DNA of 20,000 bases from Catajapyx aquilonaris (Eukaryota): assembly GCA_000934665.2 (NCBI GenBank), contig JYFJ02001477.1, positions 58,722 to 78,721 on the forward strand. The letters run 5' to 3'. The stretch's first letter is position 1, and each line of letters opens with the position of its first letter. A program made the position numbers and the translations under genes. The notes under the pieces were generated by a model. It was given only the letters and a program-made list of their open reading frames with translations. It did not search any database and was not told the DNA's origin. This document shows, piece after piece, positions 4,821 to 17,931 of the stretch.

Positions 4821-5296
4821 TGTCCCTGCACGTGTCCAGGTTTTTTAAAGTGGACTTCGCATGCCAGCTCCACATTTAATTCAAAAAGTTAATTGAGGTT
4901 CCATTTCAGAGGTAGTGCGGAAGCTCTTTCCGGGCGTAAAGGATCGGGATGTTGAGCTGGACACGGCCAATTATCTCAGGTACAGAGGCCATCAATGTGT
5001 AAACCATTCCCAAGCCATGTTTGCCACTGTTTACATGAAAGTTACGGAGTATAACTTTTAACATGATTGTATGATATAACCATTGTGAATAACATTTTAT
5101 AACAGTTAAATTATATTATTATGATGTAATATAGTAAACTAGGTATAGCGTATATTGCAATAGCTTTCATTGCATTTTGTTGCAGCAGCGAGTAGCAGTG
5201 ACGCAGGTAGCAGCTACTTTTCAATCGCGCATATTCACCTCCCACTCAGTCTGTTGTTCTTCTTTCCAGGCGTCCGAATGCACCCTCTCCAAAATC

Positions 5297-5306
5297 CAAG
5301 ATGGCG
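5297..5306 (+). promoter_or_regulatory. YY1/Pho-type motif CAAGATGGCG in the presumed 5' region of ZNF gene A
   Basis: Exact match to the AAGATGGCG core about 140 nt upstream of the ATG at 5442. Confidence 0.4.
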
Positions 5307-5441
5307 TCCCTCTGAAGAATAATTCTCCTTCGCTTCTCTCTTCCTCTTCGGATTCCCTCTGATTCGCACTGTTCTTGGCGAGGTTCTTGGAAAGGGTTGG
5401 TGAAGAGAAGGAACGCGAGTGGAACGCCCCTGAAGAAGGCC

Positions 5442-7100
5442 ATGTCGCTGACCCAGACCATCAAGAAGGAAGCGGAGGACGAGGAGATCACGACAGAGGA
5501 GACTTGGCTCCTGAGGATCAAGGAGGAGACGCCTTCCTGCCTGGAGGAGGACCCTGGCTTCTTTGAAAGATACGCTTCAGGGGCTGGAGGTGTAGAAGGG
5601 AAGGAAGATGACGGCAGGGTGGCTGAGGTAAGCATGTGGATTACCTCCGTTAATCAGTATAAGGTTATGAGAGAGCATAATGTGGGATCAGATCATAACC
5701 ACAATATCAGAGGACTGCTCATTTCAGTACTTAATATGAAGATTAACTTATCTGAATGCATTTCATTTCAGCCGTCAGCAGGACATGAAGAGGAGGAAGA
5801 GTGTGCAGATGAAAATACAGCTGCGGACAGTGGTTTGATCTTGACCATCAGTGTCAAACCAGAGCCAGAGACACTGCAAAGTTCTTCCACAACGGAAATT
5901 CTTCAGAGCTTCAGGATGATAAAGCAGAACCATTCAGATGATAGTCTGGGGAAGGGAAAGGTGGGTCGCATTGAATTCGAAGCAGGAATTTGTATTGTTA
6001 AATATTTTATGCGATGATTTCATTCGTAGGAAAATGCAATCCAAGAGAGTGTGAAGGCACGGAATTCTTCCCCTTTCCTGGTCCATGGGATGGTTTTTGA
6101 TGAGGAAAAGAAGGCCATAGCCCACAGACTTGCCCACAGTACTTTCCAGTGCGATGTTTGTGGCAAGGTATGCAAGACTTTGGGAAATCTGACCAGACAC
6201 AAGGAGGTCCATCCAGGAGAGAAGCCCCACAAGTGCACCAGATGCGACAAGTCCTTCTTCTCAGAGCACAGGCTGCAGCTTCACATTTCCTCCCATGACC
6301 CTGATGGTGAACTCGTCTGTCACACTTGCAACATGTCCTGCAGCACAAAACGTGCTCTGCGGAAGCATATAAAAGTGCACCAGCGAATTCATGTTTGCAG
6401 TGTGTGCGACAAGGCATTTACAAGCGAATCTGACTTAAAGAGGCATGCACCTGTACATGTGAAGGAGAAACCCTTTCTTTGCGATGTTTGCAACATTAGA
6501 TTTAAGTACATGAAGGGCTTGAAACGTCACAAGAAATGGAATCATGCTGAGCAGAAGCAACTATTAAAATGCAAATTCTGCCCATCCACTTTCAAGAATG
6601 AGATGTACCTCAAGCGTCACTTGAAGAGGCATACGGAGTCAGGCTCAAAGAGAAGGTTCAGATGTACTCTGTGTGGAAAGGCATTCACTATGAGGCATGA
6701 TTTGGAAAGTCATGTTTGTACTCACACTGGGGAAAGGCCCTTTGAATGTGACGCGTGTGGTAAGGCTTTTCGTATGGCAAGGTATTTGAAAAATCACAAG
6801 TTGCTGCACATGGAAGATGAATCTCACTTATGCACAGAATGTGGGAAATTCTTCAAGTCCAGAAATGCCCTTTACTGTCACAAGAGGACCCATAAAAGTC
6901 CACCAAAACAGTTCAAATGCCCCCATTGTTCTAAGTTTCTCAGAAGGAAGGATGAACTAGAGGACCACATTCGGCAGAGGCACACTGGGGAGAGGCCTTG
7001 TGCTTGTGACATTTGCGGGAAAAAATTTGCAAGCAGAGATAATATCAGACAGCATGCTAACAGACACGGTAAGGAAAAGCCACCCAAATCCAGCAAATGA
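5442..7100 (+). CDS. C2H2 zinc-finger protein, paralog A (~481 aa; 11 intact fingers plus 1 degenerate); exons 5442-5627, 5772-5960, 6030-7100
   Basis: Phase-0 GT-AG introns 5628-5771 and 5961-6029 at positions conserved in the paralogs. Acidic N-terminus IKKEAEDEEITTEETWLLRIKEE...VKPEPE, repeated CxxC-x12-Hx3-4H with TGERP linkers. The first finger has lost its Cys residues (PFLVHG vs PCLVCG). The start ATG is inferred from paralog C. Confidence 0.9.
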
Positions 7101-7529
7101 GAAAAGCGTTTCGAGACTCACCCAGGATCAAACTGTAGCTTAGTTGTTTAATTATTACGGGCAACCATTCCCACGTCGTTGTTGTGCCGAGGCTTTTGAG
7201 AGACATCGTGACCTTCTCAGAAGCAAGAAAAAAGTGCTGCGATTTCTCCCAAAACCAAATGAATTTGGAGTGCCATTTGAGGAAATGTTAAGAAGGAAAT
7301 GTGTTACCAAGAGACATGCTCTATAATCTAGATAATTCATGTGCAATCCTCTATTGGAAAAAAAATATATATTTTCCTCAACTCCTTTCCATTCTTTAAA
7401 ACCTCATTTACAGCATGAATGCAAATCCCGGTGGTTTTAATGAATATAATCTGAGTTATATTTAATTAATTAGATTGGATATGCAGCCACTATAATAATA
7501 ATATTAATTGGCCCTTCAAACATCACAGG

Positions 7530-9116
7530 CAAGCGGAGGAGGACGAAGAGATGACGACGGAGGAGACTTGGCTCCTGCAGGTTAAGGAAGAGGACCCTGG
7601 CTTCTTTGAAAGATATGTTTCAGGCGCTAAAGACAGGGTGGGAATGGAGAAAGGTGACGGCAGGGTGGCCACGGTAAGCATGTGGATCGTCTCCGTTGGT
7701 TATTATGAAGGGGCCTGTAGAGAGAGCAGATCAGAGGACTGCTCCTGATGATCGGCCTCTCCATGCATTTAATTTCAGCCGCAAGTAGAACATGAAGAGG
7801 CAGGTGTGGGTGCGGGTGAAAATGCAGCTGCGGATAGTGGTTTGATCTTGACCATCAGTGTCAAGCCAGAGCCAGACGCTTCTTCCAAAATGGAAATTCT
7901 GAAGAGTTTCAGGATGGCCACGTACAAGCATTTAGACAAGAGTCTGGAGAAGGGAAACGTGGGTGATGTAAGGTCACGTAGATTTTTAACCAGTTGCCGT
8001 GACAAGATCCTGCAGAAGTAGTCTTTTTATGATTTCTTGCTGTCATTTTTTGTAGGCAAAGGCTAATCAAGAGAGCAGGAAGGCACAGACTCGTTTCCCT
8101 TGCCCTGTCTGTGGATTGGTTTTTGATGAGGAAAGGAAGCTTGCTTGGAGCCCACAGATGCTCCCACATTACTTTCCCTTGTGATGTTTGTGGCAAGACA
8201 TGCATGACTTTGGGAACTCTGACCACCCACAAGGAAGCCCATCCGGGTGAGAAGCCCCACAAGTGCACCAGATGCGACAAGTCCTTCTTCTCAGAGCACA
8301 GGCTGCAGCTTCATGCTTCCTCCCATGTCTCTGGTGGTGAACTCGTGTGGCCTGTTTGCAATAAGACCTACAGCAAAAGACCTTCGTTAGTGGCTCATGT
8401 AAGAGAGCACCAGAGAACTCATGTTTGCAGAGTGTGCGACAAGGCATTTTTAAGCAAATCTGTGTGGAAGAGACATGCAAGTGTACATGTGAAAGGGAGA
8501 CCCTTTGCTTGCGATGTTTGCCACGGTAGATGTAAGACTAAGAAGACCTTGAAAGTTCACAAGAAATTGAAGCATGCTGAGCAGACGCAAGTATTCAAAT
8601 GCAAACTCTGCCCCTCCACTTTCAATAATGAGACATATCTCAAGTATCACTTGAAGAGACATAAGGGGACAAGGTCAGAGAGAAGGTTCAAGTGCACTGT
8701 GTGTGGAAAGGCATTCACTAAGAAGGGTAATTTGGAACAGCATGGCATGACTCACACTGGGGAAAGGCCCTTTGAATGTGACGTGTGTGGTGCGAGGCTT
8801 TTCGTTGGGCGAGTAATTTAAAAGAGCACAAGTTGCTGCACATGGAAGATGAATCTCATATTTGTGGAGAGTGTGGGAAATACATGAAGTCGAGAAGGGT
8901 CACGAGAGGAGACATATGATTCTACAAAAATGCCCTCATTGTGATAAAGCTTTCAGCTGGAAGAGTGAAGTAGAGGTCCACATTCGGCAGAAGCACACTG
9001 GGGAGAGGCCTTACACTTGTGACATTTGCGGGAAAAGATTTGCAGGCAGAGATAATATCAGGCAGCATTTCAAGGTAGTACATTGTAAGGAAAAGCCACT
9101 CAAATCCAGCAAATGA
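7530..9116 (+). pseudogene. C2H2 ZNF paralog B, 5'-truncated pseudogene; exons ~7530-7673, 7779-7958, 8056-9116
   Basis: Same exon layout as A. A 4-bp cttg duplication at ~8140 frameshifts exon 3 (stop at 8182-8184). It also has a +2 insertion at ~8792, a ~10-bp deletion at ~8898 and Cys>Trp in finger 4 (LVWPVC). It abuts A's 3' flank with no promoter-like region. Confidence 0.88.
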
Positions 9117-10107
9117 AGAAATTGTTTTGAGACTTGCTCAGGATCAAACAGTCACTTATTTATTCTGATGAGAGACCCGCCTTCCTATGTCACTGTTGTG
9201 TCAAGGTTTCTAAAAGACTAATACCTTCTCAGCCTCAAATAAAAGTGCTGCGATACCCTGCAGAATCGAACTCATTCAAGGCTGTTTGAGGAAATGCTAC
9301 GGAAAACGTAGGAGACAATCTCATATTATTTCACTTGTAATCGCATTCATTTGGGAATAGAAGTAAAACAGGTTTTTTTTCTCCCTCAACTGCTTTCCCT
9401 TCTTTAAAACCTATTTTACATGTTGCTTGCAAGTGCTGGCTGTTTAATTGACTAGATCTGGAATTTAATTAATTAAATTGGACCTGCCAACCACAATATT
9501 TGCCCTTGAAATAAATTATTACTTTCATAAATGTACTGAAACAAGGCCGCGCACCTTCACCAGATGATTTTAACCCATTTGATTTCCTCGTGAAACCGGT
9601 ATTTTAACAATATTTTATGGCATGCATTTATTATAATATTTGCATATATTTTCGCTCTTCTTCCATAACTGGTTAGACAGAGTAGCAGTTACACTAGCAG
9701 TTACCTTCATAATAGCGCATAAGTGAGTCCCTGCCTTTGTCAGCCATCGGAATGCGGCCATCACAGAACAAGTGAATAGCGACAGGCGTGCTCTTTTGCT
9801 CAGGCGGCGTCCTTCAGCTAATTAATCGTCATTATTTTGCTAATTGGCGTCGATTTGCTGAACTTTTTGTGGGGGAAAGGAGACTGGTAAGTGAAGGGAG
9901 ACGTTCAGGTGACGACCGCAGTAACCAGTTGGCTTATTAAAACCCGTTGACATATGTAACCAGACCTGGACAAACATTTGCCTGTGGTTGTCAATGGGAA
10001 TGACAATGGTTCGCATGAAATTCTTGGCCATGAGCCCGTGACATTATGCCCGACACACCTTCTGAGAGTAACATGTTTTTTGTTTTTTTTAAACAGTAGC
10101 TAGAACC

Positions 10108-11764
10108 ATGTCGTCATCACTGCGGACCATCAAGAAGGAAGCGGAGGACGAGGAGATGACGACGGAGGAGACTTGGCTCCTGCGGATCAAGGAGGAGACG
10201 CCTTCCTGCCTGGAGGAGGAGGACACTGGCTTCTTTGGAAGATACGCTTCAGGGGCGAAGGACATGGGAATAAAGGAAGAAGATGATGGGAATGTGGTAA
10301 AGAATGTAGATCGGGGGTAACCTGCTCTTCCCACGGCCTCTTTCCATGCTAATGTAATCAAGATTCACCTGGGCAACCAAACATATAAACGAACTTAGCA
10401 TTTTATATTAGAGATTTTAAATAACCTCATGGCTGTGACATTGTGTAGGGCTGTTTGCTCATTGTGGTCCTGATGATTAAGCCATCCATGGGTTTTATTT
10501 CAGCCAACATTTTCAAACAATGAGGAGACAGAGGGTGCGGGTGAAAATGTGGCTGCGGACAGCACTGGTTTGATCTTGACCATCAGGGTCAAACCAGAGC
10601 CAGAAGCAGTCCGAGGTCCTCGCACAACGGATATTCTGAAGCGTTTCAGGATGGCAAAGAAGAACCATTCAGATGGGAGTCCTAGTAAAGAAAAGGTGGG
10701 TCGCATATCATTCAAAGCAAAATTGTACTGTTCAATAATATTGTATGCTACGTAGGCCTACTATTGTTTTGTAGGCACAGACTTCTTTCCCTTGCTTGGT
10801 CTGTGGAATGGTTTTTGATGAGGAAAAGAAGGCCATAGCCCACAGACTTGCCCACAGTACTTTCCAGTGCGATGTTTGTGGCAAGGTATGCAAGACTTTG
10901 GGAAATCTGACCACCCACAAGGAATCCCATCCAGGAGAGAAGCCCCACAAGTGCACCAGATGCGACAAGTCCTTCTTCTCAGAGCACAGGCTGCAGCTTC
11001 ACATTTCCTCCCATGACCCTGATGGTGAACTCGTCTGTCACACTTGCAACAAGTCCTTCAGCACAAAACGTACTCTGTGGAATCATATAAAAGTGCACCA
11101 GCGAATTCATGTTTGCAGTGTGTGCGACAAGGCATGTACAAGCAAATCTGACTTAAAGAGGCACACAAGTGTACATGTGGAAGAGAGACCCTTTCCATGT
11201 GATGTTTGCAACACTAGATTTAAGACTATGGGGAACTTGAAACGTCACAAGAAATTGATGCATGCTAAGCAGACACAACTATTAAAATGCAAATTCTGTC
11301 CCTCCACTTTCAAGAATGAGATGTACCTCAAGCGTCACTTGAAGAGTCATACGGATGCAGGCTCAGAGAGAAGATTCAGGTGCACTGTGTGTGGAAAGGC
11401 ATTCACTAAGAAGAGTCATTTGGCAAGGCATGGTGCTACTCACACTGGGGAAAGGCCCTTTGAATGTGACGTGTGTGGGAAGGCTTTTTGTCAGGCAAGT
11501 AATTTTAAGAGGCATAAGTTGCTACACATGGATGATGAATCTCATGTTTGCGGAGAGTGTGGGAAATGCTTCAAGTCGAGAAGTGCCGCCCTCTACCGTC
11601 ACACGAGGAGACATAAAATTCCACCAAAACAGGTCAAATGCCCCCATTGTTCTAAGTATTTTCAATGCCAGAGCCTTGTAGAGGCCCACATTCGGCAGAG
11701 GCACACTGGGGAGAGCCTTACGCTTGTGACATTTGCGGGAAAAGATTTGCAAGCAGACAAATGA
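10108..11764 (+). CDS. C2H2 ZNF paralog C (11 fingers; 12th lost to a 1-bp deletion; may be a nascent pseudogene); exons 10108-10296, 10504-10695, 10775-11764
   Basis: Phase-0 introns. gagagcct at 11711-11718 lacks one G relative to gagaggcct in the paralogs; restoring it gives YACDICGKRFASRQMIRRHMMLVH and a TAA at 11821-11823. One extra Ala in finger 10 (SRSAALYRH). A 5'UTR acceptor lies at 10095-10096. Confidence 0.8.
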
Positions 11765-12344
11765 TCAGAAGGCATATGATGCTAGTACATGATGGTAAGG
11801 ACAGGCCACCCAAATCTCTCTAATGAGGAAAGTGTGTCGATGTGACTCACTCAGGATCAAACTGTCCCTTAATATTTAATTCTGATGTCTGACCATTCCT
11901 ACGTCAGGTTGTTGAGATACATTATTGTAACCTTCTCAGAAGCTATAGAAATAAGTGCTGTGTATTTCTCTCGAAAACAAACTAATGTATTTGGGGCCAC
12001 TTGAGGAATTGTTATGAAGGAAATGTGTTATGAGAGACAAGATTTATTATTTATATAATGTAATCCTCCAATGGAAATAAAAAAAACATTATTTTCCCCA
12101 ACATTTTTACAATCTTTAAATCCTCATTTACAGCTGGAATAAAGTCCTGGCATCTTTATATTAGGTAACAATCATATAATTATGATTGCTTAATGGTAGC
12201 TATATATTATATTGTATAATTGTTATGCAGCTATTTAACTATTGTATCATAATATGATCATTGTGAACAACATTTTACGACAGATAAATTATGATTATGA
12301 CCAATGAAAATTATGTTTATTCGTGTTGGTTCAGATCTCTTTCA

Positions 12345-12450: not shown

Positions 12451-14838
12451 ATGAGTGGCGTCGAGCGTTCCTCTTTTTCTTCGACCAACGTGCTTCAGGT
12501 AATTAATCATTAATTTTGTTAATTAGGTGTCGATTTACCCGATAATTTCGTGGGCGGAAGTCGAAGAGGAAGGCGTGGGAAGACGGGAAAGGTAACGACC
12601 ACTGTAACCAGTTGACATGTGGTAACAAACCTGGACATAAACAAACCTATACCTTGGTCACTATTGCCAGTGTTTATTTTCCTGTAAGGTGACGTTTCAG
12701 GGATCCGGAAAGGAAGAAGTGAGAGGGCTGCAAGATTTCTGGCTGTATCGATGCACCCATCCTTTGGCTGCACAATGTCACGCCAGAGACCACTGAGATT
12801 AATGCCGTGGTTTAGAACAACCCTTCTTCTCTGCGGCAAAAAAAATGTCAAGGCTAGGTCGTCTGCAACGAAATTCACGGCAACAATCCACACTTGGCCC
12901 CACTGAGACATCACTTGTTGGGAAGAGGGTTTGCCAGTGATGAGGAGGTGAAGTTAGAGCAGGTTATCGCCTGGTTACGTTCACCTGCCCCGAAATTCTA
13001 GGCAGGGGATATAGAAGCCTAGGTGTAATAAATTGACTCAGGCATTATATCAAGCGATAACATTCACCATATCTTCAATATGAGTAAGTGGTGGGCTTCT
13101 GTCATTAAAATTTTCCAAAATAAAAAAAAAAGTTTCACCTTAGTTTCTGGACACCCCTCAGAGCTGTGATATCAGAGGACTGCTCATTGTGGTCCTGATG
13201 ATTGATCCGTCCATGGGTTTAATTTCAGCCCCCAGTGCCATACAAAGAGGAGGCGGAGGATGCGGGTGAAAATGTGGCTGCGGACAGCACTGGTTTGATC
13301 TTGACCATCAGGGTCAAACCAGAACCAGAAGCAGTCCGAGGTCCTCGCACAACGGATATTCTGAAGCGTTTCAGGATGGAAAAGAAGAACCATTCAGACG
13401 GGAGTCCTGGTAAAGAAAAGGTGGGTCATGTAGCATTCAAAGCAAAATGGTATTTTAAATATTAACGTGTTCATGACTTTAATTTCAGTTGTCAGTGACA
13501 AACAAAGACGAGGCAGAGGATGCGGGTGAAAACGTGGCTGCAGACAGTGGTTTGATCTTGACGGTCAGTGTCAAGCCAGAGCCAGACACAGCCCGAGGTC
13601 CTCGTACAACGGAAATTCTGAAGAGCTTCAGGATGGCAAAGCAGAACCATTCAGATGATAGTCTGGAGAAGGGAAAGGTGGGTTGCATGTCATTGAAAGT
13701 AGCCGTGGTAAAAAGTTGTGTTTAAAAGAAATCTATTATAATTTTTATTTTTTAGGCAAATGCAAATCGAGAGAGCAGGAAGGAGCACACTTCTGACCCT
13801 TGCGCCGTCTGTGGAATGGTCTTTGATGAGGAAAAGAAGGCTAACGCCCACAGATGTGCCCACATTGAAAAAAATACTTTCCCATGTGATGTTTGTGGCA
13901 AGATATGCAAGACTTGGTGGTCTCTGGCCAGCCACAAGGAATCCCATCCGGGAGAGATGCCCCGCAAGTGCACCAGATGCGACAAGTCCTTCTTCTCGGA
14001 GCTCAGGCTGCAGCTTCACATTTCCTCCCATGACCCTGGTGGTGAACTCATGTGTGGCATTTGCAAAAAGTCCTTCAGCGAAAGAAAAACATTTTTGGCA
14101 CATGGGAGAATGCACCAGGGAATTCATGTTTGCAGAGTGTGCGACAAGGCATTTAGAAGCGAATCTGTGTTGAAGACACATGCAAGTGTACATGTGGAAG
14201 AGAGACCCTTTCCATGTGATGTTTGCAACACTAGATTTAAGACTATGGGGAACTTGAAACGTCACAAGAAATTGATGCATGCTAAGCAGACACAACTATT
14301 AAAATGCAAATTTTGTCCCTCCACTTTCAAGAATGAGATGTACCTCAAGCGTCACTTGAAGAGGCATACGGATGCAGGCTCAGAGAGAAGGTTCAGGTGC
14401 ACTGTGTGTGGAAAGGCATTCACTACGAAGAGTAATTTGGTACAGCATGGCTCTACTCACACTGGGGAAAAGCCCTTTGAATGTGACGTGTGTGGTAAGG
14501 CTTTTTGTCAGGCAAGTAATTTGAAAGCGCACAAGTTGCTACACATGGAAGATGAATCTCATGTTTGCACAGAATGTGGGAAATCCTTGAAGTCGAGAAA
14601 GTGTCTTTACCATCACATGAGGAGTCATAAGATTCCACCAAAACTGGTCAAATGCCCCCATTGTTCTAAGTCTTTTCAATGCAAGAGCCTTGTAGAGGCC
14701 CATATTCGGCAGAGGCACACTGGGCAGAGGCCTTACGCTTGTGACATTTGCGGGAAAAGATTTGCAAGCAGACAAAATATCAAGCAGCATGTCAAGGTAG
14801 TACACAGTAAGTGCAAGCCACTAAAATCCTGCAAATGA
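12451..14838 (+). CDS. C2H2 ZNF paralog D (12 fingers, ~503 aa); exons 12451-12498 (tentative), 13229-13420, 13489-13677, 13756-14838
   Basis: The exons from 13229 onward are GT-AG bounded, all phase 0 and uninterrupted to TGA 14836-14838. Exon 2 is present twice. The first exon MSGVERSSFSSTNVLQ|gtaatt is in phase but less certain. No TEETWLL exon was found for this copy. Confidence 0.82.
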
Positions 14839-15548: not shown

Positions 15549-15650
15549 AATTAACAGTAATGATAATTATTTACCCTGATATTATACACGACTGAAAAAC
15601 ACGCTCACATCATCGTCACATTTTCATACATCTCATGTCTTCTGTCATCG

Positions 15651-15681
15651 ACAATAATAACAACAACAACAATAATAATAA
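15651..15681. repeat. (AAC/AAT)n microsatellite
   Basis: acaataataacaacaacaacaataataataa. Confidence 0.85.
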
Positions 15682-15785
15682 GGTAATGATAATCATATAA
15701 AAAAGTGAGAAATGTTTACAACTTCTGATGAGCTGTTCGACATTTAATGCTTGCACATTATGCACTGTAAATTCCGAAGACCACT

Positions 15786-16815
15786 TCAACTCGTAACAAG
15801 TTCCGCACTGGTCTTCCCAAAAGTATAGTTGCTGCAGGTGTCACGAAATTGATGCAAGTAAATTCTGTAAGTGACCAATCCACGGGCCTTGTCAAGGGGA
15901 ATTTCCGACACCTTCCATTTATTATAAGCCTTGGATGTCGTACTTCTGTAGGAACAACTCGTACATCTGTTTTGACACTTCGGACTGTAGTCAGGTGTCT
16001 CTTGGTTTTGTTGTACTTGTACGGATTGAAAGGAAGAGACCTGATGTGGTCTGTGATCAGCTGGAGTTTTGCAGGGTCTGTCTCTCGAGGGTTATTTCCA
16101 TGCTTCCCGCGCAGCTCTTCTGGCACCTGCTTCCGGCTCGCTAGAAGAGCCAGCCTCCTCATCCGTCCAGGACGCACGTTGTGGAGGGAGCAAAACGCCT
16201 TCAAACACACGACACTGCCACACCTGTTTGGGTACACTTATCATATATCAAAAAGTACTGTACACTAATTAATATGTACCAAGCAGGACAGTGTAGATGT
16301 ACGTAGCAGTCCTTGGGGAGCGTTTTAGTTGACTGTCACCAGTGCCACGCTTGCGACGGCGTAGTATTGGTGTTGTAGTGATGCAGTGTTGAAGATAGAT
16401 GTCCTGGGCAACTTTCCCTCTCTTTTGCAGCTGCTTGAACTTTCTGAGGATAGCTTTCCGTTTGTACGTGGGTACGGCAGCGAGACAGTTCCGGCGGCAT
16501 CTGCAAGTGGCGCACGGTTGACTGCAAATTCAGTTACTGCGTACCCAATACTTACCTGCAATCGTTATGTCTCTGAACGTTGCATGTACCAGGACGTAAA
16601 GGATCATTGGCACTGTCCACAGGCTCCAGCTTCTTGGTCAAGACCATTTCTTCCTCCTACTACTCCTTGACGTCATGTTTGGCCTCCATAACACTGATGG
16701 TAGACTCATTGCCTATGTCCAAAGTGGCCTCCTGCTTCACTTGCAGCAACCACGTCTCCTCTGTATCAACACTGTCTGCTGCTTCCTCCACCTCAGTCTT
16801 GACTTTCACTTCCAT
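15786..16815 (-). pseudogene. Spliced fusion gene: TEETWLL acidic module plus Sola-like transposase N-terminal region; exons 16815-16556, 16500-16280, 16223-15786; apparently disabled
   Basis: Manual translation: MEVKVKTEVEEAADSVDTEETWLLQVKQE...VKE**EEEMVLTKKLEP...HNDC|RCRRNCLAAVPTYKRKAILRKFKQL...QDIYLQHCI...RRRKR...RTATYIYTV|..VVCLKAFCSLHNV..GRMRRL...ELRGKHGNNP...ITDHIRSLP...RHL...SVK/QMYELF../..VTYRIYLHQF...NYTFGK...*. Introns are 55 and 56 nt, plus a 56-nt 5'UTR intron at 16875-16820. Lesions: TAG TAG at 16662-16657 and 1-nt frameshifts near 16280/16223, 15972 and 15935. The Sola assignment is from remembered motifs. Confidence 0.75.
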
Positions 16816-17030: not shown

Positions 17031-17901
17031 ACCACACACGTTACATTCAAAGGGCCTTTCCCCAGTGTAAGTAGTGGCATGCCTTTGCCAAATTACTCTT
17101 CGTAGTGAATGCCTTTCTGCACACAGTGCAACTGAACCTTCTCTCTGAGCCTGCCTCTGTATGCTTCTTCAAGTGACGCGTCCGGTATTCCTCATTCTTG
17201 AAAGTGGAGGGGCAGAGTTTGCATTTTAATAATTGGGTCTGCTCATCAGCAGGCTTCAAGATCTTGTGACGTTGCGAGTTCTCCATTAACTTAAACCAAC
17301 TGTTGCAAACATCAAAAGCAAAGAGTTTCTCTTCCACATGTACATTTGCATGCTTTTTTAAGTCAAAGTTGCATATCCTCCTGAGACCTGATGTCCAATA
17401 TATTGGACATCAGCAAAAAAAAAAAAAAAGTCAACTGAAATAGACGCACCTTTTTTTTTTTTTTTTTTTTGCTGATGTGTTTGCTGATGTCCAATATATT
17501 GGACATCAGGTCTCAGGAGGATATAAATGCCTTGCTGCACACTCTGCAACCATTTATTCGCTGGTGCACTCTTACATGATTCAAAAATGCTTTTTTTTTG
17601 TGTGTGCTGTAGGTCTTGTTGCAAATGTGACGCACAATAAGTTCACCACCATCTTAAGGAACATGAAGCTGCAGCCTGACCTCGGAAAAGAAGGACTTGT
17701 TGCATCTGGTGCACTTGTGGGGCTTCTCTCCCGGATGGGATTCCATGCGTGTGGAGGCTCAGAGATTTAAAATCCTTCTTGCCACAAACATCACACAGGA
17801 AAGCATTCCACTCAGTGTGGGCACGTCTATGGGCCTTGGAAGTCTTTTCCTCATGGAACACCTTAATTTCCACAGACTGGGCAAGGAAAAGAAGTCTGTG
17901 C
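17031..17901 (-). pseudogene. C2H2 ZNF paralog E, inverted exon-3 fragment (fingers 1 to the start of 9)
   Basis: The acceptor tag|gcacagacttc at 17901 is like paralog C's. Finger sequences are homologous (FFSEVRLQLH; CKLCPSTFKNEEY; CTVCRKAFTTKSNL). It has multiple frameshifts and a MITE insertion, is truncated at 17031, and exons 1-2 are not seen. Confidence 0.88.
17377..17520. mobile_element. 144-bp MITE, piggyBac-like CC...GG ends, perfect 41-bp TIRs, ATAT TSD
   Basis: TIRs at 17377-17417 and 17480-17520 are perfectly inverted; ATAT at 17373-17376 and 17521-17524. Excising it with one ATAT restores the finger KAFICNFDLKKH in frame. Confidence 0.92.
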
Positions 17902-17911
17902 CTACTAAAAA

Positions 17912-17931
17912 AATCAATCAATCAATCAATC
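17912..17931. repeat. (AATC)5 microsatellite at the point where homology to the ZNF intron ends
   Basis: aatcaatcaatcaatcaatc. Confidence 0.9.

Follow-up and report, generated by a model that had tools for sequence, protein, structure and literature searches.

We propose that the N-terminal head of gene A, a C2H2 zinc-finger gene in the 20 kb stretch of DNA analysed here (20,000 nucleotides, "the window" below), is the effector of a lineage-specific tandem C2H2 family. Judged from its sequence, the head is probably, though by no means certainly, repressive, and would act in a SUMO-dependent manner through short motifs. From the sequence and its open reading frames, positions 5442-5960 are coding exons 1 and 2 of this gene, which is intact and has three exons (Table 1). 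Exon 3 matches Pfam zf-C2H2 (E = 1.4e-40) and zf-H2C2_2 (E = 7.5e-46), with 11 finger motifs.

Table 1. Genes, exons and remnants discussed in the text, numbered along the window.
Feature	Position	Strand	Description
Gene A, coding exon 1	5442-5627	+	62 codons; ATG at 5442; donor GT at 5628; no Pfam family
Gene A, conserved core	5460-5528	+	IKKE 5460-5471, acidic run, TEETWLL 5493-5513, IKEE 5517-5528
Gene A, intron 1	5628-5771	+	GT..AG, 144 nt, open in frame
Gene A, coding exon 2	5772-5960	+	63 codons; GLILTISVKPEP at 5832-5867
Gene A, intron 2	5961-6029	+	GT..AG, 69 nt
Gene A, exon 3	6030-7100	+	coding 6030-7097, then stop codon; linker and 11 C2H2 fingers
Paralogue B, probable pseudogene	7530-9116	+	exon 1 remnant 7530-7673, exon 2 7779-7958, finger exon from 8056
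Paralogue C	10108-11823	+	exon 1 10108-10296, exon 2 10504-10695, exon 3 from 10775
Paralogue D	13229-14838	+	tandem exon-2 copies 13229-13420 and 13489-13677; finger exon 13756-14838; without exon 1
Decayed transposon-like remnant	15616-16529	-	downstream of E; pieces in three frames; ORF reading
Copy E, orphan exon-1-like ORF	16663-16815	-	51 codons; VKTE, TEETWLL, VKQE; ends TAG TAG
Decayed C2H2 zinc-finger remnant	17047-17921	-	upstream of E; Pfam zf-C2H2 E = 7.3e-07 on ORF 17047-17409

Every exon junction is in phase 0, and the splice sites are canonical in all copies. For exon 2, the TTTCAG acceptor and the GTGGGT donor are retained in five of five copies. Splicing was followed in contigs from three sequencing runs (X1, X2 and the public run X5). 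An X5 contig of 230 nt, with no other letters, joins position 5958 to 6028 and skips 69 nt (GT..AG, cut +2). The joint across intron 1 in an X5 contig runs from 5620/5621 to 5771/5772, and its donor position is that of paralogue C. In the DNA runs X1 and X2, contiguous contigs span both introns and no such joints were found. The kind of run X5 is not on record, but it is probably RNA, since its contigs carry exon-exon joints. Its contigs leave 5200-5412 and 7117-7300 without cover, and nothing is concluded from these gaps. The exons of gene A are spliced as modelled, exactly so between exons 2 and 3 and through the C-type donor between exons 1 and 2. The placement of the head on separate phase-0 exons, claimed in the preliminary description, agrees with these joints. 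Upstream of gene A there is a single AAGATGGCG element, and its pattern at ≤1 mismatch is not enriched over shuffles. An ORF resembling CTC1 is present at 1-999 of the window; a word-index search with it gave 2555 candidates, of which none scored. Rfam gave no matches in the window.

Gene A sits in a tandem cluster with the decaying paralogues B, C and D. B is missing its first ~12 codons and has no upstream ATG; its finger exon is frameshifted, with the ORFs 8033-8821 and 8853-9116 in different frames. Exon 3 of C has a late one-base deletion near 11715. The finger exon of D is intact and encodes 12 fingers. Part of the conservation described below may reflect recent duplication, because only one of the four plus-strand genes in the window (gene A) is intact. 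Between paralogues, the finger contact positions -1, 2, 3 and 6 are 34-60% identical and the other finger residues 73-84%. The DNA-contact residues of the fingers are the fastest-diverging part.

A six-frame scan of the 20 kb found TEETWLL four times: in A, in B (7557-7577), in C (10162-10182) and on the minus strand in copy E (~16764-16744). The same scan found L[IV]LT[IV]xVKPEP five times, once each in A, B and C and twice in D. Residues T18-L24, K27 and E29 are invariant in all four exon-1 copies. The exon-2 alignment has 26 invariant columns, which include AADSGLILT and VKPEP, with K29 and E31 among them. The motif is flanked by psi-K-x-E sites as the preliminary description had it (IKKE or VKTE before TEETWLL; IKEE, VKEE or VKQE after), and VKPE stands beside the hydrophobic stretch in five of five exon-2 copies.

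The most constrained part of the gene is exon 1. Over an 18-codon core, the DNA of A, B and C is 84-94% identical, compared with 69-79% in the rest of exon 1 and 49-74% in intron 1, so the head is more conserved than its surroundings, as had been suggested. Calculated over 48-63 codons in three or four paralogues, dN/dS is 0.23-0.37 for exon 1 (A, B and C), 0.35-0.71 for exon 2 and 0.65-0.90 for exon 3. Conservation here is a comparison of paralogues within the window; relatives from other organisms were not found.

Could this pattern be no more than a trace left by gene conversion and recent tandem duplication, with the head a mere spacer or an expression or solubility tag? We think this very unlikely. 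In its favour, three of the window's four plus-strand genes carry damage, the models predict a disordered head, and the 86% identity between A and C in exon 3 marks the copies as young. However, the dS of exon 1 (0.37-0.75) is at least that of exon 3 (0.16-0.33), and yet its dN/dS is the lowest; the adjoining introns have also diverged to the extent given above. Copy E resembles A, B and C at the DNA level over one 37-nt stretch only (78% to B). Its dN is ~0.8, saturated outside the motif, and the remainder is unalignable, yet TEETWLL is kept through three synonymous base changes and both psi-K-x-E sites are at the same positions as in the other copies. The organism's DNA, like run X5, also contains many more variants of the core sequence. 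The paralogue letter G at 5495, in the core, occurs in 12 contigs of X1, 7 of X2 and 8 of X5; only two copies in the window have G at the equivalent position. The summed depth in X1/X2 is 881/1170 in the core bin, the highest of the N-terminal part, and 90-98/133-187 in the two bins with intron 1 only, where contig depth is not copy number (a stated warning of the tool).

The SUMO-consensus pattern, [VILMAFP]-K-x-E, is present in a context predicted to be coil or short helix. Compared with within-exon shuffles, there are three sites in A (0.43 expected, P = 0.007), four in C (0.50 expected, P = 0.001) and two in E (0.35 expected, P = 0.04). The enrichment is 7-8-fold (P = 0.001-0.007), and the positions are conserved, including in copy E, in line with the SUMO-consensus sites pointed out in the preliminary description. 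A SUMO-interaction motif has a hydrophobic core of the form psi-psi-x-psi or psi-x-psi-psi beside acidic or serine residues. ILTI (ILTV in one copy) follows ADS in all five exon-2 copies, but the pattern is not above shuffles (P = 0.07-0.12).

The composition of exon 1 raises another possibility. It is 29% D+E, the head has a net charge of -11, and W22, L23, L24, F40, F41 and Y44 are embedded in acidic runs. The head might be an acidic activation domain in which W, L and F (EETWLL, GFFERY) are kept exposed for co-activators, with psi-K-x-E at most a SUMO-dependent damper ("synergy control"). The accessible part of a human screen describes such a composition, acidic with W, L and F in between, for activation domains, and bifunctional domains are also reported there (DelRosso et al., bioRxiv 10.1101/2022.08.26.505496). 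In the same part of that study, however, deletion of psi-K-x-E rarely altered activators and abolished most repressors bearing the motif. A constant head, fast-diversifying contact residues and a tandem birth-and-death cluster are, moreover, the architecture of the repressive KRAB and FiNZ families, as far as the available sections of PMC10547256 describe it. We consider activation unlikely, though it deserves to be kept in view.

AlphaFold2 models of the exons, built from only four to five near-identical sequences, have a mean pLDDT of 57.5 for exon 1 and 62.5 for exon 2 (pTM 0.22 and 0.16) and are mostly coil. Helices are predicted, at low confidence, at residues 19-29 and 40-45 of exon 1 and at 40-52 of exon 2; the first of these covers EETWLLRIKEE. 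The best-predicted block is GLILTISVKP, with a mean pLDDT of 84 over 10 residues. With these pLDDT values and short helices only, the head appears to be disordered, with short motifs embedded in it, and the earlier term "module" is not supported in the sense of a folded domain. The predicted helix is conserved and amphipathic, with W22, L23 and I26 on one face. It could pair paralogues, so that the head would be a self-association (dimerisation) element like ZAD, SCAN or BTB; according to the available text of PMC7913770, insect zinc-finger proteins homodimerise through their ZAD heads. We find this scarcely credible, as no folded domain is predicted, the likeness to the ZAD profile is at the level given below, and a lone 11-residue helix with a strong net negative charge would make a poor dimer interface.

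The 125-residue head is uncatalogued and apparently lineage-restricted. With hmmscan at E ≤ 1, no Pfam family, among them KRAB, ZAD, BTB/POZ (PF00651) and SCAN (PF02023), was found in exon 1, exon 2 or copy E, and their absence had already been noted in the preliminary description. A KRAB box follows the pattern VTFxDVxVxFSxEEWxxLDxAQxxLY, and ZAD is a zinc-binding four-cysteine dimerisation fold. Aligned by hhalign to 42 KRAB heads (taken from proteins matching the finger exon), the exon-1 and exon-2 alignments gave probabilities of 0.1% and 0.0%, versus 99.9% for a control of one half-set of KRAB heads against the other. The probability against 13 ZAD heads was 0.1%, versus 99.7% in the ZAD control, and there is no invariant cysteine in either alignment.

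The read-through translation of 5442-6014 (both head exons and the in-frame intron) had no phmmer match at E ≤ 0.001 among 1,835,955,588 representatives, a threshold out of reach for a gapped likeness of 25 residues. Metagenome contigs gave 87 and 597 pattern matches, none of them confirmed. In a word-index search, exon 1 gave 52 candidates among longer proteins, none of which scored, and the finger exon gave 2118 proteins at E ≤ 1e-20. The best 120 of these 2118 come from arthropods, vertebrates and molluscs, and all are generic zinc-finger proteins of 25-39% identity. Against these best 120, the five head exons reached an E of 0.074 at best with phmmer, and a regular expression found no head of the EETW type. 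The best score of exon 1 in the ESM Atlas was 0.80, to unnamed clusters, which is chance level. No occurrence of the string "EETWLL" was found in literature text, and a search of the literature on newly described zinc-finger-associated domains surfaced only ZAD and FiNZ. Text searches for short motifs of the FiNZ type turned up no relevant paper.

Several known systems are close in organisation. KRAB (PF01352) of tetrapod KRAB-ZNFs and the "KRAB-like" head of ray-finned fish ZNFs (described in the accessible part of PMC11603059) are, like the head proposed here, N-terminal acidic effectors on separate exons. They share with it rapidly diversifying finger arrays in tandem clusters and an expected repressive role. 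The head differs from KRAB in the profile results above and in having no predicted fold. ZAD (PF07776) of arthropod ZAD-ZNFs is likewise a lineage-specific N-terminal partner of expanding C2H2 families, but the head has no conserved cysteine quartet and no match to the ZAD profile. The SUMO-consensus repression motifs of human factors such as SP3 and MGA, as far as their published description was available, share identical IKEE and IKKE, and also VKPE, in a disordered acidic context. Here, in contrast, three sites surround a hydrophobic strand and a W-L-L helix that is conserved, and they recur throughout a gene family as its constant head; SUMOylation is a prediction from sequence.

The closest system is FiNZ, a short (28 aa) glutamate-rich N-terminal sequence of fish zinc-finger genes that repress transposable elements, as described in the available sections of Wells et al. 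2023 (PMC10547256). In gene A, a core of ~25 residues from residue 7 is similarly short and glutamate-rich. The published FiNZ start-site morpholino, reverse-complemented, encodes MAFIKEE, so FiNZ also begins with an IKEE site, at residues 4-7, compared with IKKE at 7-10 in A and 8-11 in C. Beyond these residues, FiNZ would carry an EETF-type patch and then another psi-K-x-E, in parallel with EETW...IKEE. In the accessible part of the report, the FiNZ sequence has its own exon ahead of the C2H2 finger exon, belongs to a large tandem family with diversifying fingers, and is unlike catalogued domains, all as here; the comparison made in the preliminary description is apt. Compared by description and by its first seven residues (MAFIKEE) only, FiNZ is analogous to the head and is possibly related to it.

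The core might be a diverged relative of FiNZ (or of the actinopterygian KRAB-like head), in which the helix would bind a TIF1-family protein such as TRIM33 and the SUMO sites would be incidental. FiNZ proteins co-precipitate with TRIM33, according to the available portion of PMC11603059. On the other hand, according to the part of PMC10547256 available, FiNZ genes occur only in cyprinids and consist of two coding exons, whereas there are three here and the second is also part of the head. The head here is ~125 residues long, with a second conserved exon (LILTIxVKPEP) and the core TEETWLL. The host is not recognisably cyprinid: the best 120 of 2118 finger-exon matches are 25-39% identical and come from many phyla, which argues against a cyprinid origin. 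The phmmer search of the head against the 1.84 billion representatives likewise gave nothing at E ≤ 0.001. Taken together, we judge such kinship improbable.

Copy E had been read in the preliminary description as a transposase fusion, and the head was on that basis taken to work with two or more kinds of DNA-binding domain. The frame of E stops at TAG TAG after 51 codons, before the decayed remnant, and the transposon-like ORFs lie in three other frames; no frame joins both. These ORFs have no Pfam match, and no terminal inverted repeats bound the remnant. In the ESM Atlas, its look-alikes are unnamed eukaryote clusters (0.91), with DUF7869 the nearest named family (0.79). The earlier observations stand for gene structure, motifs and flanking sites, whereas the transposase fusion is not supported. 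A bolder reading, which we regard as quite improbable, is that the head is a portable SUMO-switched cassette that moved between host and transposon, or that its core is a distant FiNZ homologue. In the cassette case, the decaying DDE-type transposon-like gene just downstream would originally have had E as its N-terminus; either the element would have captured the head of a host silencing factor, or the zinc-finger family would have obtained its head from the element. If the core were a distant FiNZ homologue, the FiNZ-type head would extend well outside cyprinid fish.

Returning to the reading we favour, a motif-based repressive effector, the head is an acidic stretch of ~125 residues, predicted to be largely disordered, that would work through short linear motifs instead of a folded domain. 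Its core of ~25 residues consists of psi-K-x-E, an acidic run, TEETWLL and a second psi-K-x-E, with the predicted short amphipathic helix EETWLLRIKEE, and a second acidic and aromatic patch (GFFERY) follows. In exon 2, a predicted extended hydrophobic strand leads into a third psi-K-x-E (GLILTISVKPEP) and then into a putative short helix. The finger array, with its paralogue-diversified contact residues, would bring the protein to DNA, and the constant head would decide the effect on transcription, in all likelihood repression. Most likely, SUMO would be conjugated to K8, K27 and exon-2 K29 (numbered in gene A), and SUMO-binding co-repressors would be recruited in this way. The amphipathic helix may add to this route or replace it by binding a cofactor of the TIF1 type, a mechanism proposed for FiNZ. 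Human data point the same way. In the accessible part of the screen, psi-K-x-E was needed in 149 of 166 repression domains containing the motif, and a 10-residue MGA tile with IKEE was sufficient for repression (bioRxiv 10.1101/2022.08.26.505496). Against this, 12.3% of inactive 80-residue tiles in that screen also carry psi-K-x-E. From the earlier interpretation, an uncatalogued and apparently lineage-restricted head with SUMO-consensus sites and a likeness to FiNZ is kept, and two DNA-binding partners and a folded module are not supported.

Among large, fast-evolving zinc-finger families that police transposable elements, those with KRAB as their constant head are the only ones understood in mechanism. 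How the effector works in FiNZ and in many uncharacterised animal expansions is an open question, as the available text of PMC10547256 puts it. KRAB and FiNZ genes become active at about the time of zygotic genome activation. A small motif-based head with three conserved SUMO-consensus lysines suggests that SUMO, and not a folded adaptor, may recruit the silencing machinery. If confirmed, the head would amount to a compact repressor (or bifunctional) module of natural origin, and to one more independent animal invention in which a constant effector accompanies a DNA-reading array that diversifies.

In this window of animal DNA, C2H2 zinc-finger genes are clustered in tandem, as seen from open reading frames and Pfam (see the table). 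The reading frame of gene A is intact, with phase 0 at every exon junction. Its N-terminal region (the head, encoded by exons 1 and 2) lies on separate exons ahead of the finger exon, as the preliminary description had stated. From this layout, 5442–5960 comprises both head exons and the intervening intron. The downstream paralogues B, C and D are each damaged in their own way, as read from the sequence.

Features of the zinc-finger gene cluster and the minus-strand remnants
Feature	Position	Strand	Description
Gene A exon 1	5442–5627	+	62 codons, ATG at 5442
Gene A intron 1	between exons 1 and 2	+	GT..AG, 144 nt
Gene A exon 2	5772–5960	+	63 codons
Gene A intron 2	between exons 2 and 3	+	GT..AG, 69 nt
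Gene A exon 3	6030–7097	+	short linker and 11 fingers
Paralogue B	7530–9116	+	lacks first ~12 codons of exon 1; several exon 3 frameshifts
Paralogue C	10108–11823	+	head exons intact; 1-base deletion near exon 3 end
Paralogue D	13229–14838	+	exon 2 twice in tandem, intact 12-finger exon, no exon 1
Copy E, orphan exon-1-like ORF	16815–16663	-	51 codons, then TAG TAG
Transposon-like ORF pieces	16529–15616	-	frameshifted; three frames, all other than that of E
Decayed C2H2 finger remnant	17921–17047	-	from ORF reading and Pfam

The tandem exon 2 copies of D (13229–13420 and 13489–13677) both have a TTTCAG acceptor and a GTGGGT donor. The first is nearest to that of C (dS 0.11), and no exon 1 of D was seen in the window. 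Acceptor-like sites, aaacag 11 nt before the ATG of C (10090–10107) and cacag directly 5' of the truncated exon 1 of B (7520–7529), hint at a non-coding upstream exon in some paralogues. No stop codon interrupts the exon frame within intron 1 of gene A (open over 5316–6017, + strand), so that retention of this intron would add 48 in-frame residues between the head exons. The observed/expected CpG ratio is 0.40 in gene A (5442–7100) against approximately 0.7 in intergenic DNA and 0.87 in two CTC1-like ORFs, which suggests a CpG depletion biased to gene bodies.

Exon joints were observed in contigs of X5, a public sequencing run of the same organism. A 230 nt contig without mismatch to the window joins 5958 to 6028 and skips 69 nt with GT..AG ends, which is exactly intron 2 of gene A. 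A second contig (186 nt, two differences) joins 5620/5621 to 5771/5772, corresponding in frame to a donor position of the paralogue C type and the exon 2 acceptor. Neither joint was seen in the DNA runs X1 and X2, where perfect contigs cross both introns. We infer that X5, a run of unrecorded kind, is transcript-derived. Several family members are present in its contigs. The paralogue letter at core position 5495 is carried by 12 contigs in X1, 7 in X2 and 8 in X5. Only two such copies lie in the window, which means that the family extends beyond this locus. Summed contig depth, which by the tool's own warning is not copy number, is maximal over the core (881 in X1, 1170 in X2); the two bins wholly within intron 1 have depths of 90–98 in X1 and 133–187 in X2.

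The head is conserved beyond its surroundings, as had been proposed. Among A, B and C, DNA identity is 84–94% in the 18-codon core around TEETWLL, compared with 49–74% in intron 1. It is 69–79% in the remainder of exon 1, 74–81% in exon 2 and 81–86% in exon 3 (74–82% and 81–87% for exons 2 and 3 with D added). The dN/dS values (Nei–Gojobori), estimated from few codons, are lowest in exon 1 (0.23–0.37), followed by exon 2 (0.35–0.71) and exon 3 (0.65–0.90). The finger contact positions -1, 2, 3 and 6 share 34–60% identity between paralogues versus 73–84% at the remaining finger residues.

A six-frame scan of the window found TEETWLL four times, in A, B, C and the diverged copy E, which agrees with the preliminary description, and L[IV]LT[IV]xVKPEP five times (A, B, C and twice in D). 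T18–L24, K27 and E29 are invariant in all four exon 1 copies, and 26 columns, including AADSGLILT, VKPEP and FRM, in all five of exon 2. The likeness of E to A, B and C is limited to 37 nt (78% to B). The TEETWLL of E has three base differences, all synonymous, and both flanking psi-K-x-E sites (the SUMO consensus) are in the same place. These sites are where they had been reported: IKKE and IKEE around TEETWLL in A and C, VKEE after it in B, VKTE and VKQE in E. VKPE is found in each exon 2 copy. Compared with composition-preserving shuffles within each exon, psi-K-x-E sites number 3 in A (0.43 expected, P = 0.007), 4 in C (0.50, P = 0.001) and 2 in E (0.35, P = 0.04). The hydrophobic pattern likened to a SUMO-interacting motif showed no enrichment over shuffles (P = 0.07–0.12).

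A transposase fusion as a second DNA-binding partner of the head is unsupported in this window: E stops at TAG TAG, and the downstream pieces lie in three other frames. Pfam matched none of these pieces. In Atlas features, they come nearest to eukaryote clusters without a name (0.91; most commonly Arthropoda and Mollusca), and the nearest named family is DUF7869 (0.79), one cluster of which also carries DDE_Tnp_ISAZ013 on 11% of its members. No inverted repeats bounding a transposon-like element were found. A perfect 45 nt inverted repeat (17373–17417/17480–17524) lies within the decayed finger remnant; an A15 run overlaps the end of its first arm and a T-rich run is in the 62 nt spacer. It looks like a small hairpin or a MITE-type insertion.

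The head has no recognisable KRAB or ZAD, as claimed earlier. At E ≤ 1, Pfam-A gave no family for either head exon or for E. Profile–profile comparison with 42 KRAB and 13 ZAD heads, drawn from proteins among the listed word-index matches to the finger exon, gave probabilities of 0.1% or less (split-set controls: 99.9% for KRAB, 99.7% for ZAD). Exhaustive phmmer with both head exons against 1.84 billion representative proteins returned no match at E ≤ 0.001. No relative was found by word-index or ESM Atlas searches with exon 1 or by two metagenome-contig scans for the head, and a literature text search found no occurrence of the core motif string. The finger exon matched generic zinc-finger proteins only, at 25–39% identity in many phyla (120 matches listed of 2118). 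Evidently, the protein collections searched contain neither the source organism nor its close relatives.

Elsewhere in the window, two long ORFs (1–1002 and 1003–1803, + strand) share one frame with a single stop codon between them. Pfam weakly matches the second to CTC1 (E = 1.6e-06; 26.4 bits, under the 27.8 cut-off), and a word-index search with 1–999 found no relative. The region (1–1803) could represent either a CTC1-like gene with few introns or a processed pseudogene. AAGATGGCG, a YY1-type core, occurs once exactly at 5298–5306, 136 nt upstream of the gene A ATG, where it starts a four-codon upstream ORF. Gene C has no such site upstream, and when up to one mismatch is allowed the pattern shows no excess over shuffled sequence.

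AlphaFold2 models built on small alignments have mean pLDDT of 57.5 (pTM 0.22) for exon 1 and 62.5 (pTM 0.16) for exon 2. Helices are predicted at residues 19–29 (EETWLLRIKEE) and 40–45 of exon 1 and 40–52 of exon 2. The best-predicted block, exon 2 residues 21–30 (GLILTISVKP; mean pLDDT 84), has no assigned secondary structure. Exon 1 is 29% acidic with a net charge of -11. Because of this composition and the low-confidence models, the head looks like a disordered region with short linear motifs rather than a folded domain.

Most likely, the three conserved psi-K-x-E lysines would carry SUMO, and SUMO-binding co-repressors would then be brought to finger-read sites. This proposal is made because psi-K-x-E was needed in 149 of 166 human repression domains containing such motifs in a tiling screen, according to passages of bioRxiv 10.1101/2022.08.26.505496; there the SP3 site is IKEE, and a 10-residue IKEE tile of MGA was enough for repression. 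The same passages provide the basis for the main rival, that the head acts as an acidic transcriptional activation domain, and report bifunctional domains. Thirdly, the core helix might dock a cofactor, by analogy with FiNZ and TRIM33, as proposed for these two (co-immunoprecipitation, PMC11603059).

FiNZ is described in passages of PMC10547256 as a 28-residue glutamate-rich N-terminal sequence without similarity to known domains, unique to cyprinids and located on exon 1 of two coding exons. The published translation-blocking morpholino, reverse-complemented, encodes MAFIKEE, so that an IKEE site stands near the start of FiNZ, as psi-K-x-E does in the head; the comparison with FiNZ suggested earlier is apt. 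It covers the description and first seven residues of FiNZ. Beyond these residues, FiNZ probably has an EETF-type patch and then another psi-K-x-E, which would be a close parallel to the core. However, gene A has three coding exons and its finger exon is non-cyprinid in look, which speaks against simple FiNZ membership. The overall build of this cluster is that of the KRAB-ZNF and FiNZ-ZNF families described in PMC10547256, with separate exons for a constant head, contact residues that diversify and tandem copies evolving by birth and death. The head thus exists as a conserved and spliced region that is absent from domain catalogues. It falls within an already known kind, the lineage-specific effector heads that expanding zinc-finger families carry, and its motif make-up yields a concrete SUMO-based hypothesis.
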